A stretch of 39,786 nt of DNA from Sulfurimonadaceae bacterium (GTDB lineage Bacteria; Campylobacterota; Campylobacteria; Campylobacterales; Sulfurimonadaceae), in assembly GCA_041548245.1 (NCBI GenBank), contig JBFESZ010000007.1, positions 1 through 39,786 of the forward strand, in the 5' to 3' direction. The notes beneath the pieces are model-generated. The model searched no databases. It worked only from the letters and a program-made list of their open reading frames with translations, and was not told the DNA's origin. Each line of letters begins with the position of its first letter. Positions within the stretch are counted from its first letter, which is position 1. Of this stretch, positions 4,601 through 28,193 are shown in pieces. The translations under genes and the position numbers were made by a program.

Positions 4601-4634
4601 ACAGCAGCTCCTTTTATCTTATCTATTATGTATA

Positions 4635-5012: not shown

Positions 5013-5077
5013 CCCTTATGATTTGAGAAATTATACTCTATTTCGATACAATATATGATGCTATCAATGGGGGCAAA

Positions 5078-5872: not shown

Positions 5873-5922
5873 AGCTCTTCATGTAATTTCAAAACAGAAG
5901 GACTTATCTGGAATCGACCCCG

Positions 5923-6849: not shown

Positions 6850-6851
6850 TT

Positions 6852-7280
6852 TTAATCCTTGTTCGTTTCTAAATGCTGATACTTTAAGGAGACATCAACA
6901 ATAAAACGTCCCTCTAAATACTTTCTGCCAATAAGCATAGGATATTTCATATCTTTGCGATCTGTCAATGAGAGTTCCGACTTGTATCTTTTCCCAAACA
7001 GTTCTATTATCGTCTTGACAAAAATCCTCTCCTGAATTGTTCCATTGGAGCTCTTCACTTTTTTGATCTTATGCACGGGCATGACAATGTGTTCTTTACA
7101 ATAATCCGGGTGTGAATCATCCAAAAGTTTAAAATGCACCGTGCCGTCTTCATTTAAATGAATGTCATCGCAATGGATGGCATTGCCATAAGCCCCTGTG
7201 TCAATTTTTGCATCAATATTAAAAAACTTTAGTTCAGGCAGTGATATATACTCATTTCTGCCTATAATTATCTTTTCTAT
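6852..7280 (-). CDS. RimK-associated retropepsin-like protease (RimB/Zn_protease family), apparent ATA start
   Basis: Frame is open upstream of the tracked GTG 7139 and reads IEKIIIGRNEYISLPELKFFNIDAKIDTGAYGNAIH; C-terminus has LTDRKDMKYPMLIGR. No in-frame ATG/GTG/TTG upstream; ATA 7280 is 7 nt after AAGGA. Confidence 0.85.
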   Translation of the reverse strand: MEKIIIGRNEYISLPELKFFNIDAKIDTGAYGNAIHCDDIHLNEDGTVHFKLLDDSHPDYCKEHIVMPVHKIKKVKSSNGTIQERIFVKTIIELFGKRYKSELSLTDRKDMKYPMLIGRKYLEGRFIVDVSLKYQHLETNKD

Positions 7281-7371
7281 AACATTGTCCTTTGAATTAC
7301 AATCATGATATATTATACTAAAATAAAAGTATTTGTACCGCTACATATAGAAAAAAGATTGGAAAATAGAT

Positions 7372-8418: not shown

Positions 8419-8461
8419 TTTTTTACTCTAGTAGCAGCTTCATAACTCTGAACCACGAAAC

Positions 8462-9565
8462 TTATAGGTCAAAAATACAACTTTTTATTTTATGAGCCTC
8501 CGCGACAGCGCTATTGTAAAGCTTGCCGTCAAAGGTGTTTAAGGCACTCACCATAACCGGCATCTTTTTGAATATCTCTTGTGCCCCATATTTTGCCAAA
8601 GCCTTCACATAGGGCAAGGTGGCATTTGTCAAAGCATAGGTCGATGTCCGCGGATAAGCTCCTGGCATATTGGCCACGCAATAATGAACCACACCCTCTT
8701 CAATAAAAGTAGGACTTGTGTGCGTTGTGGCGTGCGAAGATTCAAAACATCCTCCCTGATCGATGGACACATCAACCAAAACAGCACCTTTTTTCATATC
8801 TTTAAGCATCTCTCTGCTAATCAACTTTGGAGCTTTTGCACCGGGAATAAGTACCGTGCCTATGACGATATCACAGCTTGGTAATAGATCAGAGATGCTC
8901 GCGGATGAACTGTATAGGGTTGATACATTTACACCCAGAACATCATTCAGATAATGCAGCCGCGCGGTATTCACATCACAAACAGTCACGTCAGCCCCCA
9001 GACCTGCTGCAACTTCTGCCGCGGCCTTTCCAGCCACGCCACCTCCAAGTATCATGACTTTGGCCCGATGTGTTCCTACAACACCGCCTATCAACACTCC
9101 GCTTCCGCCGTGATATCGCCCAAGATGCACGGCACCCATCAGTGATGCCATCTTGCCTGCCACCTCACTCATCGGCTCCAAAAGAGGCAAACGGCCTTCT
9201 GCATCTAAAGTCTCGTAGGCAAAAGCACGTACTCTTTTTTCAAGCAGAAAGTGTGTTAATTTTTCATCCGCTGCAAGATGCAAATAAGTAAAAAGTATAT
9301 GTCCCTCTTTAAAAAGCTCGTACTCACTTTCGATGGGTTCTTTTACCTTAACGATCATCTCACATCGATTAAAAAGCTCATTAACATCCCTTAGGATGAG
9401 TGCCCCGGCACTGCGATACTCCTCATCACTAAAACCGCTTCCTTCGCCAGCTTCTGACTCTACATACACACTATGGCCAGCTTCACACAACTCTTGTACC
9501 CCGGATGGTGTTACTGCCACACGATACTCATCTGCTTTAATCTCTTTAGGCACTGCAATCTTCAT
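8462..9565 (-). CDS. ald: Alanine dehydrogenase
   Basis: MKIAVPKEIK..EYRVA, VKVKEP, FTYLHLAA, PMSEVAG, GGGVAG, IDQGGCFE, YCVANMPG. Start ATG 9565 with AAGGAG SD. Confidence 0.96.
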   Translation of the reverse strand: MKIAVPKEIKADEYRVAVTPSGVQELCEAGHSVYVESEAGEGSGFSDEEYRSAGALILRDVNELFNRCEMIVKVKEPIESEYELFKEGHILFTYLHLAADEKLTHFLLEKRVRAFAYETLDAEGRLPLLEPMSEVAGKMASLMGAVHLGRYHGGSGVLIGGVVGTHRAKVMILGGGVAGKAAAEVAAGLGADVTVCDVNTARLHYLNDVLGVNVSTLYSSSASISDLLPSCDIVIGTVLIPGAKAPKLISREMLKDMKKGAVLVDVSIDQGGCFESSHATTHTSPTFIEEGVVHYCVANMPGAYPRTSTYALTNATLPYVKALAKYGAQEIFKKMPVMVSALNTFDGKLYNSAVAEAHKIKSCIFDL

Positions 9566-9795
9566 AGACTCGCTCCTTATTTCAATACAATCAACACCTT
9601 TGTACCTGATATTGGCCAATGTTAATGCATCTTTTGTTAATTTAAAATATGTTTTTGATATTAGATAAGAGCAAAAAAAGAAGTTACTATCCATTGCATT
9701 GATAAAAAAATTATTATATTTTATGATAAACTATCTACTCAATGCTATAAAATATATACAGTTAAGTGATACAAAAATTTCATACAAGGAAGAAG

Positions 9796-10722
9796 ATGAG
9801 AACGCTGTTAATAAACCTACCTTTATTACTGCTTTTAATCTTTTTTCCAGGATGTCAAGACAAGAGTGATCACAAGAACACTTATGAGCCAAAATATTCT
9901 GAACAACCTGTCTTAAAAAAGAAGAAGTTATATGTCCTTGGTGTTCATCCCCTGCACAATCCTAGTCGTCTCTTTGAAGTCTATCAGCCCATGATCCATT
10001 ATATCAATGAACATTTGGAAACGAGTGAACTTCGCCTGGAAGCATCACGAGATTATGCTACTTTTGAGAAAAAACTCTTTTCCGGCTATTTTCACTTTGC
10101 TTTACCAAACCCCTATCAGACTATTATCGCGATACAAAATGGATACAAAGTTTTTGGAAAAATGGGTGATGATGAGAGTTTCCGCGGTATCATCTTGCTA
10201 AGAAAAGACAGCAAAATAAATACAGTCAAGGACCTCCGAGGAGAAACCGTCAGCTATCCGGCTCCGACAGCTTTGGCTGCGACTATCATGCCACAATGGT
10301 TTTTCTACCAGCATGGACTCAATATTAATCAGGATATAACCAATAGCTATGTCGGTTCTCAAGAGTCATCCATTATGAATGTCTATCTGGGCAAATCAGC
10401 AGCCGCTTCAACCTGGCTTCCGCCATGGCGTGCCTTCGTCAAACAAAAGCCTCAAATCGCAGATGAGCTACAGATTAAATGGCAGACAGACCCTCTGCCG
10501 AACAATGCCCTAGTCGCAAGAGAAGACATTCCGAAAGAGCTTGTCGACAAGGTAGGTCAGCTTGTATTCTCACTGCATACCAATGAACGAGGTAGAAAAA
10601 TTTTAAAGGCAATGGAGTTAAGCAGATATGAACCGGCTGATGAGAGTGTCTATGAAAGTGTAAAGGTATTTATTCAACAGTTTGAAGACAAGGTTCGTAT
10701 AATAAGGACAGATAATGAATAA
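9796..10722 (+). CDS. PhnD/SsuA-like periplasmic substrate-binding lipoprotein (no transporter nearby)
   Basis: Lipobox-like FFPGC, GVHPLHNP, NPYQ, YVGSQESSIMNV, PLPNNALVAR. Start ATG 9796 after AAGGA. Confidence 0.85.
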   Translation: MRTLLINLPLLLLLIFFPGCQDKSDHKNTYEPKYSEQPVLKKKKLYVLGVHPLHNPSRLFEVYQPMIHYINEHLETSELRLEASRDYATFEKKLFSGYFHFALPNPYQTIIAIQNGYKVFGKMGDDESFRGIILLRKDSKINTVKDLRGETVSYPAPTALAATIMPQWFFYQHGLNINQDITNSYVGSQESSIMNVYLGKSAAASTWLPPWRAFVKQKPQIADELQIKWQTDPLPNNALVAREDIPKELVDKVGQLVFSLHTNERGRKILKAMELSRYEPADESVYESVKVFIQQFEDKVRIIRTDNE

Positions 10723-12604
10723 TATTTTACACCGGCTGCGTCCAAAAAGCTTTAAATCTCAACTTGTCTTGGGAATGGGATCAATTCTAACATTTTTGAT
10801 CCTTACTTTCAACTACATAACAGTCACAGAGGAGCGTGACTTTTTACATGAACAGGGTCTCAAGCAGGCTGCTAACCGTAGTCTTGCATTAGCCGCAGCA
10901 GCCAAAGTATGGCTCTTAAGCAATGATTATGTCGGACTGGAAGAGATTGCCCATAACTTTGCTGTCTATGATGACCTAGAGTTTATCGCTATCATCAATA
11001 TGGATGGAAAGGTCCTCGAACACACCGATCACTCTCTTATCGGCCAGTATATCGCTGATGAAAAACGCATTGCATACCTCAAAGAGATGAGACATACTGA
11101 TGACAAACCGACTGAATATAAGATACTTATTGACAATAAACAGCATATCGAAATCATGAGAATGGTCCATGATGGTAAAAACCACATCGGTATGATTAAC
11201 CTACGCCTAAATCAAATAAACCGTCAAAAAAACATTGATGAGATCATCATGAAAGGTATTGTTTTCACTCTTATATCTGTTTTTGTCGCAATACTCTTCT
11301 CTTTTTTTATTGTCAACAACCTTTCAAAAGAGCTGATCGCGTTGATTGCAATGATGAAAAGAGTCAGGCATGGTGATAAAAGTGTGCAGGCAAACGAGAG
11401 TACGACAAAGGAAATAGCACTGCTTTCACGTGAATTCAACAGTATGATTAGCGCACTTAAAAAGAGTGAAGAGTCTTATGAACGCCTGCGCGAACGTCTG
11501 GAACTTGCCTTTGAAGGAACACAAGACGGTCTTTGGGACTGGAACCTGAGTGAAGATAGCGTATATTTTTCTCCTATATGGAAAAAAATGCTAGGTTATG
11601 AAGACCATGAAATTCCCAACAAGTTTTCCAGCTGGCAAGAGCGGGTCCATCCTGATGACTTGGATAATGCCATGAAAGACGTCCAAGATCACATTGACGG
11701 TAAAACTCAAATGTATAAAAACATCCATCGTCTAAAGCATAAAGATGGCCACTGGATATGGAATCTGGCCCGCGCCAAAGCAATTTATAATCAAGATAGA
11801 AAAGCTATTCGTATGGTCGGAACCAATGCCGACATCACTGAACTCAAACGATTAGAAAAGGCATTAGACGATCAAGAAGAACTGATGATAGCACAATCTC
11901 GCCATGCCGCGATGGGAGAGATGATATCTATGATAGCACACCAATGGAGACAACCTATTACTGTTATCACCATGGGTGCGAACAACATGCTTGTCGATAT
12001 TGAACTTGGCAACACCTCAGAGGAGAAGTTGCGCCATGAGGCTAACAGTATCGTAGCCCAAGCACAATATCTTTCTAAGACTATCGATGACTTCAGAGAC
12101 TTTTTCCGTCCAAACAAAAACAAAGAAGAGGTCAAAGTCCAAGATGTCTTCAATGAAGCGGTCAATATCATTGGAAAAAGTTTTGAACATGATAATATTT
12201 CGCTCTCTATCAACGGGAATGAGATCGGAACCATAAAAACTTACTCTCGAGAACTTCTGCAGGTCTTTTTAAACCTTTTAAAGAATTCCAAAGAGGCACT
12301 TGTCGAACATACCAAAGAGCATCGTTACATCGATGTTCTCATCCGCAGTGATGAGGACAGTGTTATCACTACCATCTGTGACAATGGTGGCGGAATCGAA
12401 AAAACGACACTTGAAAAGATATTCGACCCCTATTTCTCTACAAAAAATGAACAAATCGGCACAGGCCTTGGGCTTTATATGTCCAAAACTATCATTGAGA
12501 AACATATGCATGGACGTATTACCGTAACAACGAAAGAAGATACGACCTGTTTTGAAATAAGCATTCCTAAAACCTCACGAGAAGAGGAGAAGAAAGATGC
12601 ATGA
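10715..12604 (+). CDS. Membrane sensor histidine kinase (periplasmic domain, HAMP, PAS/PAC, HisKA, HATPase)
   Basis: Two TM helices, DGLWDW PAS start, VHPDD, IAHQWRQP H-box, NLLKNS, DNGGGI, GTGLGLY. Confidence 0.95.
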   Translation: MNNILHRLRPKSFKSQLVLGMGSILTFLILTFNYITVTEERDFLHEQGLKQAANRSLALAAAAKVWLLSNDYVGLEEIAHNFAVYDDLEFIAIINMDGKVLEHTDHSLIGQYIADEKRIAYLKEMRHTDDKPTEYKILIDNKQHIEIMRMVHDGKNHIGMINLRLNQINRQKNIDEIIMKGIVFTLISVFVAILFSFFIVNNLSKELIALIAMMKRVRHGDKSVQANESTTKEIALLSREFNSMISALKKSEESYERLRERLELAFEGTQDGLWDWNLSEDSVYFSPIWKKMLGYEDHEIPNKFSSWQERVHPDDLDNAMKDVQDHIDGKTQMYKNIHRLKHKDGHWIWNLARAKAIYNQDRKAIRMVGTNADITELKRLEKALDDQEELMIAQSRHAAMGEMISMIAHQWRQPITVITMGANNMLVDIELGNTSEEKLRHEANSIVAQAQYLSKTIDDFRDFFRPNKNKEEVKVQDVFNEAVNIIGKSFEHDNISLSINGNEIGTIKTYSRELLQVFLNLLKNSKEALVEHTKEHRYIDVLIRSDEDSVITTICDNGGGIEKTTLEKIFDPYFSTKNEQIGTGLGLYMSKTIIEKHMHGRITVTTKEDTTCFEISIPKTSREEEKKDA

Positions 12605-13019
12605 TATCAAACAATTGAAAGAACAAATCCAAACTCTCAGAGAAAGAGTGAAACAATGTAAGATACTCGTTGTTGATGACGAGGATGAAATACGTGAAAA
12701 GACAGGCGCCTTCATGGAAAGATTTTTCGACATAGTCCATTGTGCCGAAGATGGCAAGGTCGCCCTAGATATGTTTAATCAGGATCCAACGTTTGATATT
12801 GTCATCACTGACCTTCAAATGCCCAATATGCCAGGCGAAAAGCTCATCAAAGCGCTTAAAATCATCGAGCCTGAGCTTTTTATTGTCATCATGACCGGTA
12901 CACCGCCTGACGTAGATGACGAGTATACACATCTGTATGATCTCTGCCTTGCTAAGCCTGTCGGAGTGGATGATATGTTAAAGATGATGGAGATGCTTGT
13001 TGAGAGAAAAAAACTTTGA
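12597..13019 (+). CDS. Single-domain response regulator (REC)
   Basis: ILVVDDE, ITDLQMP, MTG, AKP; overlaps the kinase stop codon. Confidence 0.92.
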   Translation: MHDIKQLKEQIQTLRERVKQCKILVVDDEDEIREKTGAFMERFFDIVHCAEDGKVALDMFNQDPTFDIVITDLQMPNMPGEKLIKALKIIEPELFIVIMTGTPPDVDDEYTHLYDLCLAKPVGVDDMLKMMEMLVERKKL

Positions 13020-13043
13020 TCGCTTGTTCTTCAGCCCTTTAAA

Positions 13044-13052
13044 TGTTAAAAT
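13044..13052 (+). promoter_or_regulatory. Extended -10 element TGtTAAAAT
   Basis: Close to TGnTATAAT, about 60 nt upstream of the REC-PilZ gene. Confidence 0.4.
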
Positions 13053-13111
13053 CCGAAATATATGACACCGTGCCAGCGTATAAAATCAAGAGTATATCTG
13101 AGGACCGATAG

Positions 13112-14626
13112 ATGTTGACTGCCGACACCATAAAAGAACTTCAAGAGCTATCTTCCGGACTTACTCTTTTATACGTTGAAGACAATGATGGCTTAAGAGA
13201 AAATGCACTTAAACTTCTTCAAACCCTCTTTACCAATGTCCTATCCGCATCAGATGGACAAAAGGGGTATGAGCTTTTTAAAAAACATCGCCCGCAGATC
13301 GTGCTCACTGATATACGTATGCCAAAACTTGATGGTATGCAGATGCTTAAACAGATAAAACAGTTACAGCCTTCAACAAAGTTTATCATCACTTCTGCCT
13401 ATGATGAGAAAGACTATCTTTTCCAAGCCATTGACCTGGGTGTCTTTCATTATATGAAAAAACCTTTCACTGTCGATACACTGCTGCAAACACTTACCAA
13501 CTGTATCCATTCAATCAGTGCTGATGAAAACAGTTCGCTCTTTAACACTTACATGGAAGATATGCTTAACTATCAACGTGACCTGCTCGCTTTGGTCTCA
13601 AAAGGAAAACCTCTGTTTGTAAACCAGATGTTTCTTGACTTTTTCAATGTTGAAAACGTCAATGCATTTGACGACAAATACACGGACTTCGGTTCATTGC
13701 TACTTGAACACAAAGGTTTTTTATACAATCATGATCAGATATCGTGGTTTGATGAGTCAAGCAGCAAACCCGGTAAGCTCTTTCACGTCAAGATCAAAGA
13801 TCAAAACGATGACAACAGGCACTTTATCTTAAAGATGCATGCTTTGCCAAAGAAAGAGAATATTTATATCATGTCCCTTAATGATATTACGGACCTTGAT
13901 CTTTTAGCTCTGTTTGACAGCAAAGCTGTTGAAAACGATGACAAGATAAAAAGCCGACGTACCATTGTCAATTTATTAGAGATCATTCAAAAAAACAGCA
14001 CAGAGATAAAGATACACAACTTTTATAAAGGCCTGACTATCACCAATATCGGTCTTGTCGAAAAGATTAACAATGAAGACATTATTGTCAAGACCACCTT
14101 CATGCAGCAAAAAGCTGCACAAAACCAAAAAAGTATTTTAATCTCTTCTGAGATTTTTCCTTCCGCTATCCTTTGTGAACCGATCAAAAAGATCGATTTT
14201 GAAAACCAGACGATCAGCTTCAAAGAGGTACGCTTTTTAGCACGGAATCCGACACAACGAAGATCCGTAAGAGTAGCTCCCGAAGAACACCACAGCATTT
14301 CTTTCTTCTTTGAGAAGAGAAAGTTCTACGGTGACATACGTATACATGACATCTCTATTGAAGCAATGAAGCTAGAGATGAGCGCTCTTCCGGCAGGCTT
14401 GAAAGAGAAAACTGCTGTTTCCATCGATATGGTTTTGGAGCATGATCGAAAACCTCTGATTATAAATACTCCAGCAAGCGTGTTTAGGATTGAAGAGATG
14501 TCCAGGTCATTTTTTGTCGTTGTAAGCCTGGAATTAACTAGCAATCAAAAAAAACAGCTTATCGACTATGTCGCTAAACGACAGATGAACTTAATTCGCG
14601 AATTTAAAGGATTACAATTTGGCTAA
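13112..14626 (+). CDS. Response regulator: REC, PAS-like and C-terminal PilZ-like domain
   Basis: YVEDN, TDIRMP, TSAY, KP in REC. LFVNQMFLDFF is PAS-like. RRSVR (RxxxR) and DISIEA (D/NxSxxG variant) near the C-terminus. Confidence 0.82.
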   Translation: MLTADTIKELQELSSGLTLLYVEDNDGLRENALKLLQTLFTNVLSASDGQKGYELFKKHRPQIVLTDIRMPKLDGMQMLKQIKQLQPSTKFIITSAYDEKDYLFQAIDLGVFHYMKKPFTVDTLLQTLTNCIHSISADENSSLFNTYMEDMLNYQRDLLALVSKGKPLFVNQMFLDFFNVENVNAFDDKYTDFGSLLLEHKGFLYNHDQISWFDESSSKPGKLFHVKIKDQNDDNRHFILKMHALPKKENIYIMSLNDITDLDLLALFDSKAVENDDKIKSRRTIVNLLEIIQKNSTEIKIHNFYKGLTITNIGLVEKINNEDIIVKTTFMQQKAAQNQKSILISSEIFPSAILCEPIKKIDFENQTISFKEVRFLARNPTQRRSVRVAPEEHHSISFFFEKRKFYGDIRIHDISIEAMKLEMSALPAGLKEKTAVSIDMVLEHDRKPLIINTPASVFRIEEMSRSFFVVVSLELTSNQKKQLIDYVAKRQMNLIREFKGLQFG

Positions 14627-15380
14627 AAGTAAAATATTGTTTGATAACGGTAAACACAAATGTATTATGTTCAGTATTGATGATGAGTCCCAGGAAGAGA
14701 GTTTTCTCTCAGTTAATCAATATCTACTCATACAAAATGGCGCAGGTATACTGATTGATCCGGGAAGTTCGGCGATCTTTCATGAACTTTGCGATGCTAT
14801 AGCAGAGTATATCCCTATTGAGAATATAAAACTTGTCTTCTTCTCACATCAGGACCCGGATGTCGCAGGCTCCATCTCAGAGTGGTCGGTATCAACTTCA
14901 GCTACCTTGGTTCTGCCAAGCATTTGGACAAGATTTATGACACATTATGGGGTTTTGGATCTTCAAAGAGTCTTTTCCATCCCTGATAAAGGAACAAAAG
15001 TGCCCTTTGGAGAGGGATTCATCAAACTAATACCTGCACATTTTCTACACAGTCCAGGTAACTTTAGTCTTTATGACTCTCAATCAAAAATCTTGTTCTC
15101 AGGCGATATTGGAGCAGCTGTTGTCCCCCCATTGGCTGTCTACAAAGAGATTGATAGCTTTGAGACCCATTTGTCCTATCTTGAGAGCTTTCATAAACGC
15201 TATATGGCTAGTAACAAGTTCTGTAGAGCCTGGGTTCAAAACATCTCCGTACTTTCCTTGGATATGATCGCCCCTCAGCATGGGGCCGTCTTTAGAGATG
15301 AAAATGTGAAAAAATTCTTGAACTGGTTCAATGAATTAGAGTGTGGTTCAGACATCATAGATACTCTCTACTTCGAGTAG
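14619..15380 (+). CDS. Oxygen-binding di-iron protein (ODP), stand-alone MBL/FprA-like fold
   Basis: NQYLL, IDPG, SHQDPD, AHFLHSPGNF, SGDIG, APQHG; no flavodoxin domain. Confidence 0.88.
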   Translation: MAKSKILFDNGKHKCIMFSIDDESQEESFLSVNQYLLIQNGAGILIDPGSSAIFHELCDAIAEYIPIENIKLVFFSHQDPDVAGSISEWSVSTSATLVLPSIWTRFMTHYGVLDLQRVFSIPDKGTKVPFGEGFIKLIPAHFLHSPGNFSLYDSQSKILFSGDIGAAVVPPLAVYKEIDSFETHLSYLESFHKRYMASNKFCRAWVQNISVLSLDMIAPQHGAVFRDENVKKFLNWFNELECGSDIIDTLYFE

Positions 15381-15488
15381 AGATCCTCTTGCCTTGTAAA
15401 ATAATATCCACCAACACATAGTGAGACAGCCTGTTGCATTGGAATGGTTTATAGGGCAAAGCCCAATACCTCTTTTGATAATCAACTG

Positions 15489-17573
15489 TTAAAAAGTTTC
15501 TACCTCATCATTGTCTTTATCTAATGTAATTGTAAAACATGCCCCATCTACCGTATTATGGCATGTAAGTACTCCTTTACAATGCTCCTGTATGATAGAC
15601 TTTGACATATACAGTCCCAGACCGGTCCCATTCATCGACTTGGTAGAGAAATACGGCTCGAATATCTTGTCAATGATATCATCAGAAATTCCGCCCGCAT
15701 TGTCCTCAATACTGATTCTCACCTTCTCATCAGCCTCCTCAGAGACTTTGATGATAATCTTGGGTTCTCTTACATTGTTTTCTACCAGCGCATCATAGGC
15801 ATTTTTTAAAATATTCACCACCACCTGCATCAGTTCATTTTCAAAACTTGACACCATCACCCTGCTATCGAGGTCTGTTTCAACAATGATATTCTCTTTT
15901 TTAAAAAGCCCTTCTGTCAGGTTTAAGGAAGACTCGATCATCTTTTTGGGACTGAACATCTCTTTTTGTTTATTGACCTTGAAAAAGTTCCTGAAGTCCT
16001 CAATAGTCTCGGAAAGGTGCTGAGAGAAACCATTTAACTTCTCAAGCTGTTCGTTGAAGAACACCTTCTCATATTTATCCATACCGATCTTCATCTGGAG
16101 CGTACCCACGGTTGCTGTTATGGCCGAGAGAGGCTGTCTCCACTGATGGGCAATCATGGCTATCATCTCTCCCATCTGCGCATGTTTTGTCTGTATCAGA
16201 AGTTGTTTTTCCTGTTCCTTCTTTTCGGTGATATCAGTATTAAATCCAATAAACCTTATTGCTTCTCCTTTGGAGTCAAACAGTGCTTTTCCCCGTCCCT
16301 CGATCCAACGCCAATTGCCGTCCTTGCTTTTCATACGAAAAACATTCAAATAGGTGATCTCCCCTTTACTTTGTAGATAAGCCTGAACTTTATCGTAGGC
16401 ACTCTCTTTATCATCAGGATGAAGCAGAGCCTTCCATGCATCAACAGTCTGTGGCAACTCTGATCCACTGTAGCCCAGCATCGTCTCAAAATGCTCTGAA
16501 TGGAACATTGTGTCATTAAGCATATCCCAATCAAAAAGCCCGTCTTGTGTTCCGTCCATTGCCAGCTTAAAGCGTTCTTCATTGAAACGTAATTTAGCCT
16601 GAATCGAAAGAAGTCTGAGTATGACAATGATTATAATAAGGATTAAAAATAAGAAAACCAATATCTCTGTACTATATTGTAGTAATATATGCTCAATATT
16701 CATATCATAAGGAGGCAAGCCAAGCATCCTTGCCGTATGTTCTACGGGAGCATAATTGTGAGGAAGTGAAAAACCATATATCGAGCTGTTTCTATCTTGA
16801 TCTGGGTGAAATTCCAGCAATATCCTAAGCAATTCATGTATACTCTTTTCATCCATATTTGGTAAGACTGCAACCGGCCATTCAGGGTATAGACGTGTTG
16901 ACAGAAGATAAGGATAGTTCAAAAGCTGTTGTGAATTGATAAGCTTGATATCATCTTTTTTCAACCTTCCCTTTGCTAGTTCAGATTCAATCATTCCGGT
17001 ACGAACAAACCCTGCTTCATATTTTCCCTGCATAACAGAACGGATGATTTCAATTTGGCTCTTCATCACAGTGATATTTTCTCTTACATCTATACCATGC
17101 TCCAAAGCCTCAAACACCTGAGATTGATATGCTCCCAACGAATTAATATCCATAGCTGCTATAGAAGCCTTTTTAAGGTCTTTGATTGTATTGAGAGCTT
17201 TGTTAGAAGCTTGTGTAAAGATGACCCCGCCAAAGCTCTCTGTTAAAATATCATTTTGAATCTTTTCTGTCGTTGCTATTGTTCTTATGGAGATATTGTT
17301 GTTATGAATAATCTCATAATGAGACGGGTTGGTAGTGAGCATGTCCAGCCTATTCTCCTGAACTGCCTTATCAAACTCTTCATAGCCTAAAATGATTAAT
17401 TCGACTTTACTCTCTCGTAGATGAGCGTTTAGATAATCAACTACAGGCTGATACTGCTGCTGGACATAATCCTTTGAACTATAAGACAATACCCCAAAGC
17501 GTAAGTTTTTTGCAGCAAAGAGCAGTGAGTTTGAGCCCAACACAAAAATAATGAATAATATCAAAAGTCTCAA
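15489..17573 (-). CDS. Sensor histidine kinase with fused N-terminal PhnD-like domain, TM, PAS/PAC, HisKA, HATPase
   Basis: Signal peptide, TNPSHY, FGGVIF, SLGAY, AGFVRTG, STRLYPEWP; then DGLFDW, IAHQWRQP, DNAGGI, GTGLGLY. Confidence 0.93.
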   Translation of the reverse strand: MRLLILFIIFVLGSNSLLFAAKNLRFGVLSYSSKDYVQQQYQPVVDYLNAHLRESKVELIILGYEEFDKAVQENRLDMLTTNPSHYEIIHNNNISIRTIATTEKIQNDILTESFGGVIFTQASNKALNTIKDLKKASIAAMDINSLGAYQSQVFEALEHGIDVRENITVMKSQIEIIRSVMQGKYEAGFVRTGMIESELAKGRLKKDDIKLINSQQLLNYPYLLSTRLYPEWPVAVLPNMDEKSIHELLRILLEFHPDQDRNSSIYGFSLPHNYAPVEHTARMLGLPPYDMNIEHILLQYSTEILVFLFLILIIIIVILRLLSIQAKLRFNEERFKLAMDGTQDGLFDWDMLNDTMFHSEHFETMLGYSGSELPQTVDAWKALLHPDDKESAYDKVQAYLQSKGEITYLNVFRMKSKDGNWRWIEGRGKALFDSKGEAIRFIGFNTDITEKKEQEKQLLIQTKHAQMGEMIAMIAHQWRQPLSAITATVGTLQMKIGMDKYEKVFFNEQLEKLNGFSQHLSETIEDFRNFFKVNKQKEMFSPKKMIESSLNLTEGLFKKENIIVETDLDSRVMVSSFENELMQVVVNILKNAYDALVENNVREPKIIIKVSEEADEKVRISIEDNAGGISDDIIDKIFEPYFSTKSMNGTGLGLYMSKSIIQEHCKGVLTCHNTVDGACFTITLDKDNDEVETF

Positions 17574-20464: not shown

Positions 20465-22411
20465 TTAATGCTCAAGATACCTCTGTTTAGCCGTGTCATT
20501 TAGACCGGTCAGTTTTCTTGCGACCTTATGCATCGCCTCTTTTGCCTTATAGTCATCCTCAACACTGCTGATCAAACCCGTACCCATCCATAAAGCGTAG
20601 ATAGTGTTGTAGTTGATGGATTCAACGACCAACAGCCAATTGAGTGTTTTAATATAAGGATCGTATATCGAACCTTCAAACGTCTCCAGGACACTATACG
20701 GCTGCAAGACATCCCTGTTTTTACCGATACTATAGGGAACATATATAAGCATGGCAAAAATCAGAAGTTTTGTTGCCGTCTTAGCCAAAAACATCATGAT
20801 CGATGTGCTTTTATGAAAGGCTAAAAACAGCATCAAGACAATAACACTGACCAGGTTCAGCAAACCGGCGACCAATGATAAAAAGATAGCAAACGGAGGG
20901 ATATAGAGCATCTTAATGGCAGTATCTCCAAATTCTGCCAACTTATACTCAAAATCTTTTTCCTCAGGAAAAGCCTGATCATAATATTTTTCACGTAACA
21001 TGGGCTTATAGAGACGGTCATAAAATCCTGTAAGATCACCCTCCAATATCATTTGATACATGATTTGACTATATTTTTTCTGTTCATACTGAGCCATGAT
21101 CTCTTTTTTATACAGGGCTGCAAACTCATTGAATGAGAGTCCTATCTTAATGTTCTTCATCCCTGTTTTGTTTTCAAACTCTTTTTGAAACTTATGTTTC
21201 TTCTCCTGGAACAACTCGTCGACACGCTTCATATAACCGGCGATATACTCTTTTTTAGAGTAATTAAAACTTGATTTGACAGCCATTCCTTCTTGGCGTA
21301 GTTGATCGATCACTTTTTGACGGACAAGAGGATGTTTAAAGTACTGTTTTTGTGAGAGGTTCAGCGGCAGTCCATTGTATTTTCTGTCCCAATCCGCCTT
21401 TGTCTCCTCTTCTATCACCTGCAGTACACGTCTTGTCGAAGGACATGCAGTACCTTCGCACCAACGCTGAGGGTCAATATCACCTTGGTTGAAATATTTC
21501 ATCATCACGGTATCGTATTCGTTTTTACTCATTGTCGAACTATCTTGGGAAAAATACTCAATCAACTCAAGGTTCAAATCTTTTGACTTAGAAAGGTTCG
21601 CATTTAAAATATTGGTGTATTGTCGAACGTTGATACGGTACTTCGTATACTCACGCTTGATTGCCTTTGTAAACTTGATGTATTTCTCATTAAGCTGTAC
21701 GGGAGAATCTATACGTGAGAACTCTTGATTGATCTTGTCTATCCCATCACTGTAAATATCCCAATTCTCCTGAATACGCAATGCCATATCCTCAAAACGG
21801 TATCGTGCTTTGTCATAGTCTTCTTGAAAATATTTATGGATATAGATATCGAAGAAGCTCTCTTTACCGCGTTGAACAAACTTTTTTATCAATTCTTTAT
21901 CGATCTGTGTCAACAAGAACAGGTTCGATATCATGACCTTGTCATAAATAGAAAGGTTCGCAAGGTTCTCTTTCGGAATGAAAGTGGAATAACCCAGTTT
22001 TCCCGTAAGCATGCCATATTTAAAGAGTTCAATATAATAGGACTCATAGCGTTTGTCTTTATTTTGCTGAACAATCTCATAAACTGCCTTGCTTAGACCT
22101 TTATGTACGCCGACATAGGTAGAAACACTAAGTATCACGACAACCATGATCATAACACCCTGATGAAACTCCAAAAACTTTTTTGCCAGCAAATAATACA
22201 AAGGGATTAGTAACAGTGTTATCCCTACAGAACTGACGCGGTTGCCAAATGACTCCAAGCGTTCCAATAGTGTCTTATCCACATGGGTAGACGTAACGAC
22301 ATCGATGACAAAACCATTATAATAGGACTCAAATCCAAGGTAAACAAGCTTGGCTATGATCAGTGAGACCATAAAGTAAAATCCCATCTTAGGAAGTTGC
22401 AGTGTTCGCAT
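20465..22411 (-). CDS. Hypothetical polytopic membrane protein, 648 aa
   Basis: Three N-terminal hydrophobic helices, a large K/E/Y-rich helical soluble region with a CEGTAC cysteine pair, and two to three C-terminal helices. TAATG-coupled to the upstream lipoprotein gene. Confidence 0.8.
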   Translation of the reverse strand: MRTLQLPKMGFYFMVSLIIAKLVYLGFESYYNGFVIDVVTSTHVDKTLLERLESFGNRVSSVGITLLLIPLYYLLAKKFLEFHQGVMIMVVVILSVSTYVGVHKGLSKAVYEIVQQNKDKRYESYYIELFKYGMLTGKLGYSTFIPKENLANLSIYDKVMISNLFLLTQIDKELIKKFVQRGKESFFDIYIHKYFQEDYDKARYRFEDMALRIQENWDIYSDGIDKINQEFSRIDSPVQLNEKYIKFTKAIKREYTKYRINVRQYTNILNANLSKSKDLNLELIEYFSQDSSTMSKNEYDTVMMKYFNQGDIDPQRWCEGTACPSTRRVLQVIEEETKADWDRKYNGLPLNLSQKQYFKHPLVRQKVIDQLRQEGMAVKSSFNYSKKEYIAGYMKRVDELFQEKKHKFQKEFENKTGMKNIKIGLSFNEFAALYKKEIMAQYEQKKYSQIMYQMILEGDLTGFYDRLYKPMLREKYYDQAFPEEKDFEYKLAEFGDTAIKMLYIPPFAIFLSLVAGLLNLVSVIVLMLFLAFHKSTSIMMFLAKTATKLLIFAMLIYVPYSIGKNRDVLQPYSVLETFEGSIYDPYIKTLNWLLVVESINYNTIYALWMGTGLISSVEDDYKAKEAMHKVARKLTGLNDTAKQRYLEH

Positions 22412-23394
22412 TAAATCCCCTCGCTAAAATCGATAAACTCTTCATGTTCGGGAAGCTGTGTTGTCGTTTTAAAGTCTCTTTTGAGATCTTTTATCTCGAT
22501 CTCGTGTTTTTTGACCTTTATATTCCCCTGCGCGTCGAACTCTGCATTCTCACTGAAAATAAAGATCTTGTATTCTCCCGTTATGGTTTTGTATTTACCC
22601 GTTCGATAGATGTCTTCGGTATGTGCGACAGCATAATGCATGTCCGCATCGTCCGGAAGGTACAACACCGATGTTGTAGGAATATTAAAATCTTCACGCT
22701 GAGCACGCAAACGCGTAAAAAGCTCCGTATTCAGCAAAGCAATTGTCTTAAGCAGCTCTTCATTACTCGTATCTGACTTTCGCTCGCTTAATACCGGAGC
22801 AACAATATCGTAGACATAGTCAGTATCAATCACTTCGACCTCGACGCGTCCGTCGAAGGCTGCCACCACATCATTCTCATCAACTTTACGACCTTTAGGT
22901 GTATACACGCTTCGCGTCTTAAGAACAAATCCGCTGGCTTGAACATTATTGATATCTTCAATTATGCCGCTTTTTTTCTCTAGTTCATCAGTGTATATCG
23001 GTGTCTTCACCGCATCCAGGAACACCACTTCATACTTTTTAATATGTGAGCTTGAGGCATCACCATCTACCACAAATCCGCTACTTTTGAGATGGATACT
23101 CTTAATGATATAAGGCTTGTCAAAACGGTATTCGATAAAGGGAAGTTCTTGTTCATCAAAAACGAATTCACCATTGAAGGAGGTACCCTTTAATTCACGC
23201 ATATTGTTAAGACCGATCTTTGGCGTAACCTTCTTGTAGGCTTTGTGTAGAACTTCTTTTCGAACAGGAAGGGATTGTTTAAACAGATCGATCTCCGACG
23301 AGACAAGAACAGGATCCGTTTCAATAGCAGCCTCTTTTTTACTGCAGCCGAATATAAAGACTAAAACGAAAAGAAGAGTTATTATTTGTTTCAT
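22411..23394 (-). CDS. Hypothetical lipoprotein, possible discoidin/galactose-binding-like domain
   Basis: MKQIITLLFVLVFIFGC signal and lipobox from ATG 23394 (AGAGG SD). FIEYRFDKPYIIKSIHL...IKKYEVVF resembles the F5/8-type-C strand pattern (by eye). Confidence 0.75.
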   Translation of the reverse strand: MKQIITLLFVLVFIFGCSKKEAAIETDPVLVSSEIDLFKQSLPVRKEVLHKAYKKVTPKIGLNNMRELKGTSFNGEFVFDEQELPFIEYRFDKPYIIKSIHLKSSGFVVDGDASSSHIKKYEVVFLDAVKTPIYTDELEKKSGIIEDINNVQASGFVLKTRSVYTPKGRKVDENDVVAAFDGRVEVEVIDTDYVYDIVAPVLSERKSDTSNEELLKTIALLNTELFTRLRAQREDFNIPTTSVLYLPDDADMHYAVAHTEDIYRTGKYKTITGEYKIFIFSENAEFDAQGNIKVKKHEIEIKDLKRDFKTTTQLPEHEEFIDFSEGI

Positions 23395-23616
23395 CAGACC
23401 TCTTTCATCATAAAATTGTTCCAAGAATAATTAAATATACCTAACAGCTAGATAATGGCAGATTATGTTTGTATAAAAGTATCAATTTCTTTTCTTTTTT
23501 TCACACCTTTCCTCTTCGATTCACTCATAATAAACCCTCGTGAGCAAAACTATATAATTTTTTTTAAGTATTAATTTAAATTATAAGAGTACAATGAACT
23601 GATGTAGGAGAATCTC

Positions 23617-24597
23617 ATGCATGTACTAATTACAGGAGGGGCCGGTTTTATCGGCTCACATTTAGCCGAGTTTCATTTAAAACGCGGAGACCGTGTTCAT
23701 GTTGTAGACGACCTATCGACAGGCCGACTCGAAAATATCACTGCTTTAATGGATCATGACGACTTTATATTTGACAAGGCCGACATCCTAATATGGGGCG
23801 AATTTGAAAAAGCAATAGCCTGGGCAGACAGGATTTACCATATGGCCGCCGTCGTTGGCCTTTTCAAAGTACTCGCCGAACCGATCTCCGTTTTAGCAAC
23901 CAATATCTCTGGGTGCGAACGGCTTTTACGTTTTTTACATAAAAGTCATTGGAACACGAAGGTGATTCTAGCCTCCTCATCAGAAGTGTACGGCAACCGA
24001 CCTGGCCGCGTCGCTCTAAATGAGAAAATGGAACTCTTGGTCAGTCCGGACATGAACACGCGTTGGAACTACTCCTTGAGTAAACTTGCCGATGAAGCAC
24101 TTGGACTCTCCTATGCGCGCCAATATGGAATGGATATCACCATCGTGCGTTTTTTCAATGTCGTAGGCCCGAACCAGACAGGTAAATATGGCATGGTTGT
24201 TCCACGTTTTGTCAAACAGGCCGTCCACGGTGAAGCAATTACCGTTTTTGGAGACGGCAAGCAGGTACGTGCCTTTATGGACGTTCGAGATGCCGTTGAC
24301 ATCCTGGACAGGCTTTCAATAAGCCCAAAAAGCAAAGGTGAAGTTGTCAATGTCGGATGCAGTGGAGAGATCACCATTGAAGGACTTGCCAAGCTGGTCA
24401 AAGAGCATGCCAAAAGTGACTCTCCTATTACCTTTACACCTTATAAAGAAGCCTATGGTGATACGTTTGATGAGATATATCACCGTAAAGCGGACCTGAC
24501 AAAACTGAAAGAGCTCATTCCATACGAGCCTAAATGGTCACTTGAAAAGACCCTAGATGACCTCATCTTACGCCAAACTATCACAAAGGATTCATAA
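23617..24597 (+). CDS. NAD-dependent NDP-sugar epimerase/dehydratase/decarboxylase (extended SDR)
   Basis: TGGAGFIG, SSSEVYG, RWNYSLSK (YxxxK), RFFNVVGP, VFGDGKQVR; AGGAG SD. Confidence 0.93.
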   Translation: MHVLITGGAGFIGSHLAEFHLKRGDRVHVVDDLSTGRLENITALMDHDDFIFDKADILIWGEFEKAIAWADRIYHMAAVVGLFKVLAEPISVLATNISGCERLLRFLHKSHWNTKVILASSSEVYGNRPGRVALNEKMELLVSPDMNTRWNYSLSKLADEALGLSYARQYGMDITIVRFFNVVGPNQTGKYGMVVPRFVKQAVHGEAITVFGDGKQVRAFMDVRDAVDILDRLSISPKSKGEVVNVGCSGEITIEGLAKLVKEHAKSDSPITFTPYKEAYGDTFDEIYHRKADLTKLKELIPYEPKWSLEKTLDDLILRQTITKDS

Positions 24598-25985
24598 TGG
24601 CAGCCACACCCTATTTTGTTTTAAGCCCAAACCTCGTCTTAAGTATCATAGGGATGCTTCATGGTCCGGACAAGACTGTGCCAACCCCGGCTGAAGATTG
24701 GCATGAAGCAACAGTTGACGTGGTTATTCCGGCATTGAACGAAGAGAGAAATATCGTTCTTTGTCTCGAATCTGTCATGCGTCAGACATTGAAGCCTACT
24801 CGTATTATTTTAATCGACGACGGCAGTAATGATAAAACTGTTGAGTATGCGCAAACCTTTTGCGATGATAATCAAATGGCTATTACGATTATTCATAGAG
24901 ACCATCCCATAGGTAAGACACCCACAATCAAGCGTCAGGCCAGAGAGTTTGATTCCGATGTTGAGTTTATTCTTGATGCAGACACCTATCTTGAATCTAA
25001 TGATTACATCGAACGTACCGTCAAGGAACTTTATCAAGCTGTCGGTATAGCAAGTGCTTGTGGAACGATAATGCCACTACGTGACAAAGACCGGAAACAG
25101 AGGCTTGAAACGGATTCAATCAAAAATTTCAGGCATAAATATCCCTATGCCCACATGCTGCCAAAACAGGATTTTTTCCATATTCTGATGCGTCGTATGA
25201 GTAATATATACCGTGATGTCCTTTATGTCTTTTTACAAAAATTTGTCTATCACGGACAAATGGTCTTCTTTGGCTCCATCACAAACCCGGTAGGATGTGC
25301 AGTCGCCTATAGACGAAAATACATCAAAGAGCTTTTTGAGCAGTATGAACCGATATTCGGTGATGATTTGACAAATTCCGAAGATATTTTCATAGGGTTT
25401 GCCCTGCTCAAGCACGGATACAGAAACATCCAGCTTATGGATGTGTATGCACGTTCTCAGGAACCTGAAGCGGAATATCTGCCTAAGGAGATATATATGT
25501 GGTCCTCCTCCTTTATGCAAAGCTGCTATTATTTTGATGATCTGGTACGCAGTCCGATCAAATCTTTCCGACGATATCTCTATCATCGAAAGGTAGAAAA
25601 GGAGCATGGAAAAGATATCCAGAAGATGCGCAAGATCAAAGAACCCTATCGCGAGGCTTTTGGTGATAATGTGACGCTTCAGTATGGACGGCCTATGGGA
25701 TGGGTAATCTTCGTGTCACTTTTGGAAAAGACGCTTTACCCAACTACCCTGTTAATGTTTATTATGTTTCAAGCATGGGAAATTCTGGGTCTTACCGTAG
25801 CACTTGAGACACTAATTTCTGTTACCATACTTACTGCCATCAGTAAAGGGAATCGTCTTGTTTATTTTGTTAAAGGAATTGTCGCGACACCTATGCGGTA
25901 TTTAAGTATTCTATTCGACCTTTACACCATGACTCGATTTGCCATTGATATCTGGTTTACGAAAAAGAAAGGATGGAGAAAATGA
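24597..25985 (+). CDS. Membrane GT2 glycosyltransferase, processive-synthase-like
   Basis: VVIPALNEE, IDDGSND, GK, LDADT (DxD), GCAVAYRR, SED, EIYMW at the QxxRW position, C-terminal TM helices. Confidence 0.9.
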   Translation: MAATPYFVLSPNLVLSIIGMLHGPDKTVPTPAEDWHEATVDVVIPALNEERNIVLCLESVMRQTLKPTRIILIDDGSNDKTVEYAQTFCDDNQMAITIIHRDHPIGKTPTIKRQAREFDSDVEFILDADTYLESNDYIERTVKELYQAVGIASACGTIMPLRDKDRKQRLETDSIKNFRHKYPYAHMLPKQDFFHILMRRMSNIYRDVLYVFLQKFVYHGQMVFFGSITNPVGCAVAYRRKYIKELFEQYEPIFGDDLTNSEDIFIGFALLKHGYRNIQLMDVYARSQEPEAEYLPKEIYMWSSSFMQSCYYFDDLVRSPIKSFRRYLYHRKVEKEHGKDIQKMRKIKEPYREAFGDNVTLQYGRPMGWVIFVSLLEKTLYPTTLLMFIMFQAWEILGLTVALETLISVTILTAISKGNRLVYFVKGIVATPMRYLSILFDLYTMTRFAIDIWFTKKKGWRK

Positions 25986-27784
25986 GACTACTACTTATAT
26001 TATTCATCATAGCATCGATTCTGTCTGCAGCTGAAAATGATATACCAGAAGCTGGATTAAAAGCAGAGATGCAAGGGGAATGGACTAGTGCTGTACAAGT
26101 CTATGAAGAGATTGTGACTTCTGATCCAACACGCATTGATCTTTTTCTCAGACTCAGTGATATCTATAGTAAACTCAATGATTATTCACGTGCAAACGAG
26201 TCATTACAAAAAGCGATAGAGCATAATCCGAACAATGCTGCTTTATATGCAAAACAATCACAGATACTGGCTGTCAACAGACAACCTAATGCAGCACTCT
26301 CTGCTATAAAAAAGGCTGTTGCCCTTGAACCAGACAATATCCAATACCTTCGTTCCCAGGCAACGATTGCCAATTGGAACAATGACTATGATCTCGCAGT
26401 ACAAAGTTACAAAACTATTTATGCTATAAACAAAGATCATCAAGTCCTTATGCAGATTGCCCTTTCAAACTCCTGGAGCGGCCACCTTGACATCGCAGCA
26501 AAAAGTTTTGAAGAGTACCTGGCCATTCATCCTGAAGAAAAAAATGCGTATGTCCATTATGCCAGAACAGAGATATGGCGAGGAAATTATCCTCAAGCGG
26601 AAAAGATTCTTGACACCTATGTCAAAAAGTTTGGAGGCAATGATGAAATTCGAAAAATACGTGCCGATCTCTACGCTAGAGCAGAGTGGCCTGATGCTTC
26701 TCATGAACTGTATACACCACTGATTGATAAAGAGCCGAATGATTATATGCTTAACTATACACGGACCTTGGCTCTTTTTCATGATCAAAAGCCTCTAGAG
26801 GCGATAGAAAGTCTGAAAAAAGTCGAGAGTCTCCAACCTCAGAGTAAAGACAGTATGGATCTTCGCAAGTTTATCCTAACAAAATATCGTTCTAATATTG
26901 AGGGAAGTGGATTCTATTCTAAAGATAACGATGATATTGAACATACCATATTATCACTTTATGGGCACTACTATATCAATCCAAAGACCTCTATCTTTGC
27001 AGGCACAGAGTATGACAGACTTCGAACACGTCCTTCAAGTACCTATATTAATATTGATGGGAGCCGTTCAAGTTCTGTAACACGTGGAGGTATTGGTGTG
27101 TCGCATCGTGCAAATGAAAACCTTGGATTTGACCTTTTACTCGGTCAAGAGGATGCAGATTATGATTCGACAATCCTTGTACGTGCCAATGCAAGGATTG
27201 ATATCAACGATAAGAGCACCTTATTTCTTAATGCTTCACATGGGTTTTATATGATTTCACCCCGTTCAGTCTCTTTAGGCGTTAAACGCTTACATTCTAG
27301 TGCTTTACTCGAGTTAAGGCCAAATCTAAGCGATACAGTCTTGCTACAAGGGGAGTATGACCTTTTCTCTCAGAACAACACACGATGGAGCGGTATGATT
27401 GCACCAAGGCATGCCGTTGTAAGAAGAGAGTCCTGGAGTATGGACCTTGGAGTAAAGGCATGGCTGTTTGGGTATGACAAAAATCTAAACCAGGGGTACT
27501 ATGACCCTAAACTTTTTGAAAGTTATATGGGAACAGCATACCTAAACTATCGTTTTTCTCAAGACAATGAACTTTTTATGATGGCGGGATTTGGTATCAT
27601 TAAAGATGATACCCTAGGCTCTTATCGACCCGGTGGTAATATCGATCTTATCGGTACGATTGGGATATATCAAGATTGGCAACTACAAGCGCGTACTGGA
27701 TATATGAACAATCAACGTGATGTTTGGAATGATGATTTTTATGACATCTATTATGTAGGATTATCCATCCTACGCAGATTTTGA
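25982..27784 (+). CDS. TPR-repeat plus outer-membrane beta-barrel protein (PgaA/BcsC/NfrA/YaiO-like architecture)
   Basis: Sec signal peptide, roughly 8 TPR-like repeats (P.N turns; NWNNDYDLA, SWSGHLDIA, IWRGNYPQA), alternating aromatic beta-strands, terminal YVGLSILRRF with C-terminal Phe. ATGA overlap with the GT2 stop. Confidence 0.85.
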   Translation: MRLLLILFIIASILSAAENDIPEAGLKAEMQGEWTSAVQVYEEIVTSDPTRIDLFLRLSDIYSKLNDYSRANESLQKAIEHNPNNAALYAKQSQILAVNRQPNAALSAIKKAVALEPDNIQYLRSQATIANWNNDYDLAVQSYKTIYAINKDHQVLMQIALSNSWSGHLDIAAKSFEEYLAIHPEEKNAYVHYARTEIWRGNYPQAEKILDTYVKKFGGNDEIRKIRADLYARAEWPDASHELYTPLIDKEPNDYMLNYTRTLALFHDQKPLEAIESLKKVESLQPQSKDSMDLRKFILTKYRSNIEGSGFYSKDNDDIEHTILSLYGHYYINPKTSIFAGTEYDRLRTRPSSTYINIDGSRSSSVTRGGIGVSHRANENLGFDLLLGQEDADYDSTILVRANARIDINDKSTLFLNASHGFYMISPRSVSLGVKRLHSSALLELRPNLSDTVLLQGEYDLFSQNNTRWSGMIAPRHAVVRRESWSMDLGVKAWLFGYDKNLNQGYYDPKLFESYMGTAYLNYRFSQDNELFMMAGFGIIKDDTLGSYRPGGNIDLIGTIGIYQDWQLQARTGYMNNQRDVWNDDFYDIYYVGLSILRRF

Positions 27785-27872
27785 CAGGAGTCATCATGAC
27801 GAAGGTTCTTGACTAGATGAAAATGTGTTTAATTTCAAAACAATTTTAATGATGAATGAAGGTAAGACGTAT

Positions 27873-28193
27873 TTATGCATTATCAAATGAAAGCGATGCT
27901 AATACCCAATCACGATATTCAGAAGAGACATCAGATATAGGCGTAGCGACAATCTCAGGAAGATCGTAAGGGTGAATTTCTTTAATACGTCTTTCAACGA
28001 CCTTGAACTTTGAAGCATCTGTTTTGATCAGAAGAAGAAGTTCACTCTCCTCACAAAACTCTCCTTCATAGATGTAATACGATTTTACCTTTGGAATCTG
28101 ATTTACACAGGCACATAGACCTTCTGTAACAAGAGCCCGCGCTATCTTTTGGGCCACTTCATCATCCGGTACCGTACAAAAGATAACTAGCAT
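27873..28193 (-). CDS. cutA: Divalent-cation tolerance protein CutA
   Basis: CTVPD, LCACVN, EESELLLLIKT, HPYDLPEI. Confidence 0.93.
   Translation of the reverse strand: MLVIFCTVPDDEVAQKIARALVTEGLCACVNQIPKVKSYYIYEGEFCEESELLLLIKTDASKFKVVERRIKEIHPYDLPEIVATPISDVSSEYRDWVLASLSFDNA

Follow-up and report, generated by a model that had tools for sequence, protein, structure and literature searches.

Positions 23,617 to 27,784 of a 39,786-nucleotide stretch of DNA from a Sulfurimonadaceae bacterium of the Campylobacterota (GenBank assembly GCA_041548245.1, contig JBFESZ010000007.1, positions 1 to 39,786; "the window" means this whole stretch) carry three genes in an operon, encoding an extended short-chain dehydrogenase/reductase (SDR), a membrane glycosyltransferase of family GT2, and an export protein composed of tetratricopeptide repeats (TPR) and an outer-membrane beta-barrel. 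The best explanation of this operon is that it forms the central part of a synthase-dependent system for glycan secretion that has yet to be described. With a probability of about 0.5, we infer that the system converts UDP-N-acetylglucosamine (UDP-GlcNAc) to UDP-N-acetylglucosaminuronic acid (UDP-GlcNAcA) and then to UDP-N-acetylxylosamine (UDP-XylNAc), and secretes a partly deacetylated beta-1,4 polymer of N-acetylxylosamine (XylNAc).

In the proposed pathway, UDP-GlcNAc would be oxidised to UDP-GlcNAcA by a TviB-type dehydrogenase, and the SDR would decarboxylate this product to UDP-XylNAc. The GT2 would polymerise XylNAc, probably in beta-1,4 linkage, and pass the chain across the inner membrane. 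Where these enzymes are present, a deacetylase of carbohydrate esterase family 4 (CE4) would partly de-N-acetylate the chain and an altered glycoside hydrolase of family 10 (GH10) would trim it in the periplasm, while the TPR region would guide it to the barrel. The predicted product is a chitin-like pentosamine polymer with a putative role in adhesion or biofilm formation.

The core operon and its distribution

The operon in the window has the following features.

23617..24597, + strand: extended SDR gene, 326 aa, Pfam epimerase/SDR
24597..25985, + strand: membrane GT2 gene, 462 aa, Pfam GT2
25982..27784, + strand: TPR/barrel export gene, 600 aa, Pfam TPR, with an in-frame ATG also at 25973
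25982..26893, + strand: N-terminal hydrophobic segment of the export protein, signal-like by eye, and periplasmic TPR region
26894..27784, + strand: predicted 16-stranded outer-membrane beta-barrel of the PgaA/BcsC/PelB type, last residues RRF

A sequence-only reading of this DNA had described three same-strand genes coupled by overlaps, and the open reading frame (ORF) coordinates agree. The SDR and GT2 genes share a TAATG overlap at 24595-24599, and the GT2 and TPR/barrel genes an ATGA overlap at 25982-25985. That reading had also proposed scoring how often SDR and TPR-barrel genes flank homologues of the GT2, and such a survey upholds the arrangement.

The genome searches used an alignment-based GT2 query, a single-protein query having given no matches. 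The locus sets consist of the best 80 of 271 GTDB stretches and the best 80 of 339 metagenome stretches, with a few contigs common to both; neighbouring genes were assigned by tblastn, and the ratios cover loci with enough flank. An SDR gene lies directly upstream of the GT2 gene at 72/76 GTDB loci and 51/56 metagenome loci, a barrel gene lies downstream at 68/68 and 32/33, respectively, and the complete SDR-GT2-barrel core is found at 62/66 and 27/28. The four GTDB genomes without an adjacent SDR all have a same-family SDR elsewhere (41-44% identity). Pairwise identities of the three core genes covary (rho 0.83 and 0.86, 64 loci). The linkage of the three genes is not due to chance.

GT2 relatives numbered 1683 among 4543 candidates, with 120 listed at 61% identity or above; none was found in the viral contigs or plasmids searched. 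Hit titles include Sulfurimonadaceae, Thiobacillus, Sulfuriferula, Halothiobacillus, Thermodesulfovibrionales, deltaproteobacteria, Acidobacteriota and Poribacteria. The system is not confined to Campylobacterota, and other phyla supply most of the retrieved loci; the abundance of sulfur oxidisers among the hits may be an effect of sampling the nearest relatives. Three-, four-, five- and six-gene forms of the operon occur in cultured strains (L074, L036, L060 and L030, respectively). A wider proposal, which we hold tentatively, is that poly-beta-1,4-N-acetylxylosamine, or a deacetylated version of it, is secreted by bacteria of several phyla, many sulfur oxidisers among them, by means of a minimal GT2, with a GH10 that has turned xylosaminidase. 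Haloarchaea, and a cluster labelled Aenigmarchaeota/Nanohaloarchaeota, also have full-length GT2 relatives of about 31-32% identity (P0172, P0174), several of which share the Arg-less motif described below.

The precursor pathway and accessory enzymes

The best PDB match of the SDR is human UXS1, a UDP-glucuronate decarboxylase. In UDP-hexuronate decarboxylases, catalysis involves an S/T-S-E motif, a YxxxK motif and a late Arg. The window SDR has S121/E123, Y152-x3-K156 and R290 in alignment with the catalytic motifs of UXS1, and R290 is present in 141/141 operon SDRs. The late Arg is missing from an epimerase match, 6wjb, which we take to be PelX, but is kept in the operon SDR. Decarboxylase activity is likely on these motifs. 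An epimerase of the PelX, WbpP or TviC kind and a 4,6-dehydratase are ruled out by motifs and tree position.

UDP-XylNAc pathways in which a dehydrogenase acts with an SDR of this family, UGlcNAcDH/UXNAcS in Bacillus and IdnS2/IdnS3 in Streptomyces, are described in the available portions of two papers (PMC5078965, PMC11284099). The XylNAc made there goes to small-molecule glycosides, and these portions describe no secreted polymer. Plasmid orthologues from Bacillus stood in for UXNAcS, matched by eye to the first ~400 bases of the published gene in the portion of the supplement available (PMC5078965). The window SDR is just 38% identical to these UXNAcS orthologues, compared with 34% to UXS-labelled proteins. 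The window SDR and the Bacillus orthologues have in common HxAAxxG, RWxY and a C-terminal insertion; all three are absent from the UXS-labelled proteins, and ArnA has the last two. A nucleotide-sugar dehydrogenase frequently accompanies the nearest plasmid relatives of the SDR. Quick trees with few references group operon SDRs with the Bacillus UXNAcS orthologues (support 93 and 85), and a clade of operon SDRs with three UXS-labelled proteins was rejected (p-AU, the approximately unbiased test, 0.031). An N-acetylated substrate, UDP-GlcNAcA, is probable, a point that the SDR by itself is insufficient to establish.

Two further clusters contain related gene pairs. On a replicon of Legionella adelaidensis (L220:6768-15030), genes for a dehydrogenase and an SDR of the same family (44%) precede those for a YaiO barrel, a HEAT protein and a GT2 of unrelated type; this is possibly a second secretion system with the same precursor. 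A Bacillus UXNAcS-like pair (L219:1-7954) comes after four glycosyltransferase genes.

The sequence-only reading saw no deacetylase or hydrolase in the operon. For the window copy this stands: no family of deacetylases, hydrolases, co-polymerases, Wzx/Wzy or PilZ/GGDEF was found in the three genes or the 35 other window ORFs scanned. For relatives it does not: they add a TviB-type dehydrogenase, CE4 and GH10. The idea of a self-sufficient minimal system is not supported. Of the 57 long-flank GTDB loci, CE4 was found at 32, GH10 at 23, a dehydrogenase at 12 and GlmS at 3. The dehydrogenase gene may follow the barrel gene, precede the SDR gene or lie between the SDR and GT2 genes. All 22 operon dehydrogenases placed in a tree belong to the TviB branch and none groups with Ugd; the label changes at least three times. 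The TviB model NF011729 was the best equivalog model in 8/8 scans (seven of six proteins plus one), at 379-553 bits against a cut-off of 592; the operon dehydrogenases being below this cut-off, they are called TviB-like here and we infer their substrate. In the window's family, a TviB-like gene is present in 14/15 other genomes bearing the GT2, directly after the barrel gene in 10, compared with 128/337 other genomes. When 50 of the 59 loci with no dehydrogenase near the operon were searched, 41/50 genomes had a match elsewhere, a count that has no background control; 8 of these 41 matches are just 36-41% identical.

The CE4 motifs are mostly kept (TFDD in 48/51). In several Sulfurimonadaceae the CE4 domain is fused within the TPR region of a porin of ~1000 aa (L002:11389-14400; L004, L006, L184, L187). 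The closest solved relatives of the operon GH10 are xylanases, and the catalytic Glu residues are kept (acid/base in 28/28 proteins covered, nucleophile motif in 29/29). The Asn before the acid/base Glu is replaced in all 28 assessable proteins, by Ala in 25 and Ser in 3. According to the portion available of PMC8056907, this Asn is highly conserved in GH10 and forms a bond to the C-2 hydroxyl in subsite -1, where an N127S substitution opens space. Its loss is the change that would be expected for a 2-acetamido or 2-amino xylose. It is the GH10, and no other component, that suggests the beta-1,4 linkage. Xylose isomerase was found in 0/5 GH10-bearing genomes compared with 5/14 controls, oxidative xylose routes lying outside this test. 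A separate GH10 clade with Asn replaced by Ser is nested among Asn-keeping xylanases (P0286, P0322, P0330, P0338, P0343, P0361, P0389).

Several observations weigh against a XylNAc precursor and product. No accessory gene is present at 21/57 long-flank loci, and no dehydrogenase match was found in 9/50 of the genomes searched. TviB-like genes are common, and kin do not count as independent genomes. The SDR grouping with UXNAcS has a support of just 85-93, and membership of CE4 does not tell N- from O-deacetylases. Among the 120 nearest GH10 homologues, 36 have Asn and 84 have Ala or Ser; the three label changes on the tree correspond to perhaps one or two events in related betaproteobacteria, from which the GH10 evidence is almost wholly drawn.

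A rival reading keeps the same machine but gives it a different product. If the donor were UDP-xylose or a related pentose made from UDP-glucuronic acid (UDP-GlcA), the product would be a bacterial xylan, perhaps O-acetylated, which we regard as unlikely. The UXS1 match of the SDR is consistent with it, as is a clade of operon SDRs with ArnA, whose substrate is UDP-GlcA and which was not rejected (p-AU 0.465), but the clade with UXS-labelled proteins was. Xylan is a substrate of GH10 and of some CE4 enzymes; the operon GH10s, for their part, have lost the Asn that binds the 2-hydroxyl. The three dehydrogenases of the window's genome are all of the Ugd type, which would suit UDP-GlcA and also counts against UDP-XylNAc, whereas every operon dehydrogenase in the tree falls in the TviB branch and, in two same-genus genomes with the operon (G009 and G015, both incomplete assemblies), no dehydrogenase other than the TviB-like one was found. 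The GlmS gene at three loci likewise argues against xylan.

The export protein and the glycosyltransferase

A TPR scaffold with an outer-membrane barrel, a feature of synthase-dependent exopolysaccharide secretion in Gram-negative bacteria, is present in the third protein. An AlphaFold2 model of its last 315 residues is a 16-stranded barrel with a predicted local distance difference test (pLDDT) score of 95.1. In a VIA comparison with 48,161 chains the top match was 4y25 (Z 28.1, root-mean-square deviation 2.2, 278 residues aligned), presumably PgaA, a name consistent with the residue range. It was followed by BcsC (Z 25.9) and PelB (Z 23.6), after which scores fall to 18.1; Foldseek agrees. 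In a set of 15 proteins, E. coli PgaA matched the barrel profile (E 5e-11), with a weak match for BcsC and none for NfrA. The C-terminal beta-barrel predicted from sequence is confirmed at the level of the model. At L014:11386-12354 the protein is a 322-aa barrel alone, with no TPRs, and at L015:11389-13698 there is an AMIN-fused TPR-barrel.

The GT2 has the D, DxD, xED and acceptor Trp of synthase-dependent membrane GT2s (D74D75, D127xD129, S261ED and E298IYMW, the last being QxxRW without its Arg) and a C-terminal WRK. Throughout the family the QxxRW position reads Q/E-x-Y-L/M-W, with Gln in 151, Trp in 158 and Arg in none of 159 GT2s. The model of the GT2 (pLDDT 77.7) has as its best VIA matches PcManGT (Z 25.4), Chlorella virus hyaluronan synthase (HAS; 23.7), Xenopus HAS1 (22) and BcsA (20); Foldseek puts HAS first, and Atlas neighbours are HAS-, chitin-synthase- and YaiP-like. 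Residues 4-462 align to HAS1 63-491 only, a range that begins at the helix 2 hinge and ends at the Trp of the gating loop in the numbering of the part of PMC11750622 available. From this range it follows that the modelled GT2 is without helices 1, 5 and 6 and that the terminal WRK of the family sits where the gating loop begins. The GT2 appears to be a truncated HAS/PcManGT-like fold. It shares with class I HAS and PcManGT a GT-A fold with interface helices (Z 22-25), and differs from class I HAS in comprising only the segment from the helix 2 hinge to the gating loop; identity to HAS and PcManGT is 15-18%.

The sequence-only reading had assumed a processive GT2 joined to a TPR-porin. The HAS-like fold bears out part of this architecture; processivity is less secure, given the following points, which count against a translocating polymerase. 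The top VIA match, PcManGT, is a mannosyltransferase and reportedly non-processive. The membrane part is small, the model missing three HAS helices and a hydropathy scan finding one helix compared with 5 in PgaC and 8 in BcsA, in a scan that undercounts (NfrB scores 2). Neither a PgaD-like gene nor any other small membrane gene with conservation across loci was found at 61 loci. The full QxxRW of processive GT2s is absent, and its Arg is essential in Xenopus HAS1, according to the available part of PMC11750622. The prediction score for a GT2 homodimer, 0.00, counts neither for nor against. With a small membrane part and no Arg, processive translocation is deduced from the partner genes and not from the GT2, and the model appears to leave the route of the chain across the inner membrane unexplained.

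The GT2 might instead make short oligomers or single transfers to a lipid or protein, the barrel exporting the product of unlinked enzymes. This is fairly unlikely in our estimation. The missing Arg, few helices and lack of a partner subunit would suit such an enzyme, as would the likeness to PcManGT, whose membrane part is similarly small; set against them are the acceptor Trp in 158/159, the C-terminal WRK at the HAS gating-loop position and the HAS-, chitin-synthase- and YaiP-like neighbours. Archaea, whose cells lack an outer membrane, have distant relatives of the GT2, yet at every GTDB locus with enough flank a PgaA-type TPR-barrel follows the GT2. A CE4 fused in the TPR region and an endo-type GH10 imply a chain in the periplasm.

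A translocating GT2 could also make a hyaluronan-like heteropolymer of XylNAc with GlcNAc or GlcNAcA, or a polymer based on uronic acid. The HAS-like fold would allow it, and the pathway would yield UDP-GlcNAc, UDP-GlcNAcA and UDP-XylNAc together, but the uronate donor would be depleted by a decarboxylase dedicated to the pathway. The barrel family has conserved basic residues, and in two Thiobacillus genomes the dehydrogenase gene is next to another epimerase-like gene; the GH10, in contrast, keeps its other xylanase active-site motifs. We consider this outcome quite unlikely.

Among known systems, E. coli PgaABCD is closest. It shares a TPR region with a 16-stranded barrel (the best structural and profile match), a small GT2 ending in a gating-loop-like Trp and, with many relatives, a CE4-type deacetylase. 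It differs in having the PgaD subunit and the QxxRW Arg, and the GT2s are ~18% identical in alignment; the system, unlike Pga, has a dedicated decarboxylase and, in relatives, a GH10 hydrolase and a deacetylase that is sometimes fused inside the porin. The PgaC model TIGR03937 reached 45.6 bits on the window proteins against a cut-off of 422.3, the PgaA model TIGR03939 reached 66.2 bits on the third protein against 366.65, and PgaD gave no match. Cellulose Bcs, Pel and Nfr share a synthase, a TPR-barrel and often a periplasmic hydrolase, in contrast to which the operon has no BcsB-like partner and no PilZ domain. The GT2 profile scored 6.2 bits with BcsA and 3.4 bits with NfrB, very weak values, and the 462-aa GT2 has no c-di-GMP domain; neither PilZ nor GGDEF was matched in the three proteins by Pfam or NCBIfam, a result compatible with an unrecognised c-di-GMP site. 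No named NCBIfam system model reached its cut-off on the three operon proteins. No description of the operon or of a xylosamine polysaccharide was found in the full-text literature, most subscription papers and bioRxiv supplements being outside that scope, and the main text available of an operon survey (PMC7112194) contains no Thiobacillus, Sulfuri- or xylan. Taken together, these comparisons describe a real and widespread system, Pga-like in its working, outside Pga, Bcs and Nfr, and apparently uncharacterised.

The copy in the window and the wider significance

The surroundings of the operon in the window are as follows.

22411..23424, - strand: gene for a 337-aa protein with no Pfam match, flanking the insertion site on the left, outside the system
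27785..27872: spacer of 88 bp with a ribosome-binding-site (RBS)-like site and a 6-codon mini-ORF, at the position of the dehydrogenase gene in G015 and G009
27873..28193, - strand: cutA, right flank of the insertion site, outside the system

The GT2 is patchy in the window's family, being present in 16/353 genomes; in a 400-genome sample of the phylum, the 366 genomes that belong to other families gave no match. Among 16 genomes of the same genus, 12 have an empty site, in which the left-flank gene is close to cutA/argB with no operon between, two carry the operon there, and two could not be determined. The operon is an accessory island at a fixed genomic position. Its GC and GC3 are unremarkable, so composition gives no sign of recent transfer. 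There was no Rfam match, and no promoter or terminator was clear above chance.

In G015 and G009 the gene order is barrel, dehydrogenase (420 aa, TviB-like), cutA, argB; both operons are split over contigs, and the G009 GT2 is unassembled. In the window the barrel gene is followed by cutA after 88 bp with no dehydrogenase between, and a contig of run X1, possibly the source sample, bridges this junction, also without a dehydrogenase. The RBS-like site and 6-codon ORF begin right at the barrel stop (27785-27815), and no sequence likeness to the relatives' dehydrogenase was found there. No TviB-like dehydrogenase, operon-type CE4 or GH10 was found in the window's assembly (96% complete, 165 contigs). 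The simplest and most likely reading is that the window copy arose from a four-gene form by loss of the dehydrogenase. The proposal that the operon makes its own precursor is not supported for this copy: a decarboxylase-type SDR needs an oxidised UDP-sugar. With the first precursor step missing, the copy may run short of precursor or draw on a different dehydrogenase.

The copy may be idle, may use a Ugd, or may have its TviB-like gene in an assembly gap. That it is non-productive through deletion of the dehydrogenase, or that the gene lies in an unassembled gap, is a serious possibility, if short of an even chance, and is compatible with any of the products considered above. The absence of a TviB/WbpA-like gene from a largely complete assembly points this way, as does the dehydrogenase in both same-genus operons, but the three-gene form is found at 21/57 loci. 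GT2 frames are broken in two other family members, G056 and G312, whereas all three frames in the window are intact. The low dN/dS against G015 (GT2 0.03, TPR 0.07, near the 0.02 of argB) indicates purifying selection and also speaks against a non-productive copy, as an average over a long history; for the SDR, dS was saturated.

Elsewhere in the window, two genes without Pfam match, encoding a 648-aa membrane protein and the 337-aa lipoprotein-like protein of the left flank (20465-23424, - strand), are kept in most of the genus. A RimK-like ligase, a Zn protease, an aspartoacylase-like protein and alanine dehydrogenase are clustered with MgtE, CorA, MscS and Na/Ca transporters at 44-9694. Two PAS histidine kinases linked to phosphonate-binding domains, one fused and one adjacent, lie at 9766-17573 with response regulators and an ODP-family protein.

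The interest of the system lies in its predicted polymer and unusually small synthase, and not in the three-gene layout of the window copy. If the proposal is correct, a further system would join the short list of synthase-dependent exopolysaccharides. Its product would be new among natural polymers, intermediate between chitosan and xylan and analogous to chitin or chitosan but lacking C6, and built from a monomer otherwise reported, in the portions of the literature available, from small-molecule glycosides. The GT2 would probe the minimal membrane scaffold of a translocating synthase, with no co-polymerase, c-di-GMP module or QxxRW Arg. Annotated "xylanases" in bacteria without xylose isomerase would gain a purpose, and GH10 a new specificity.

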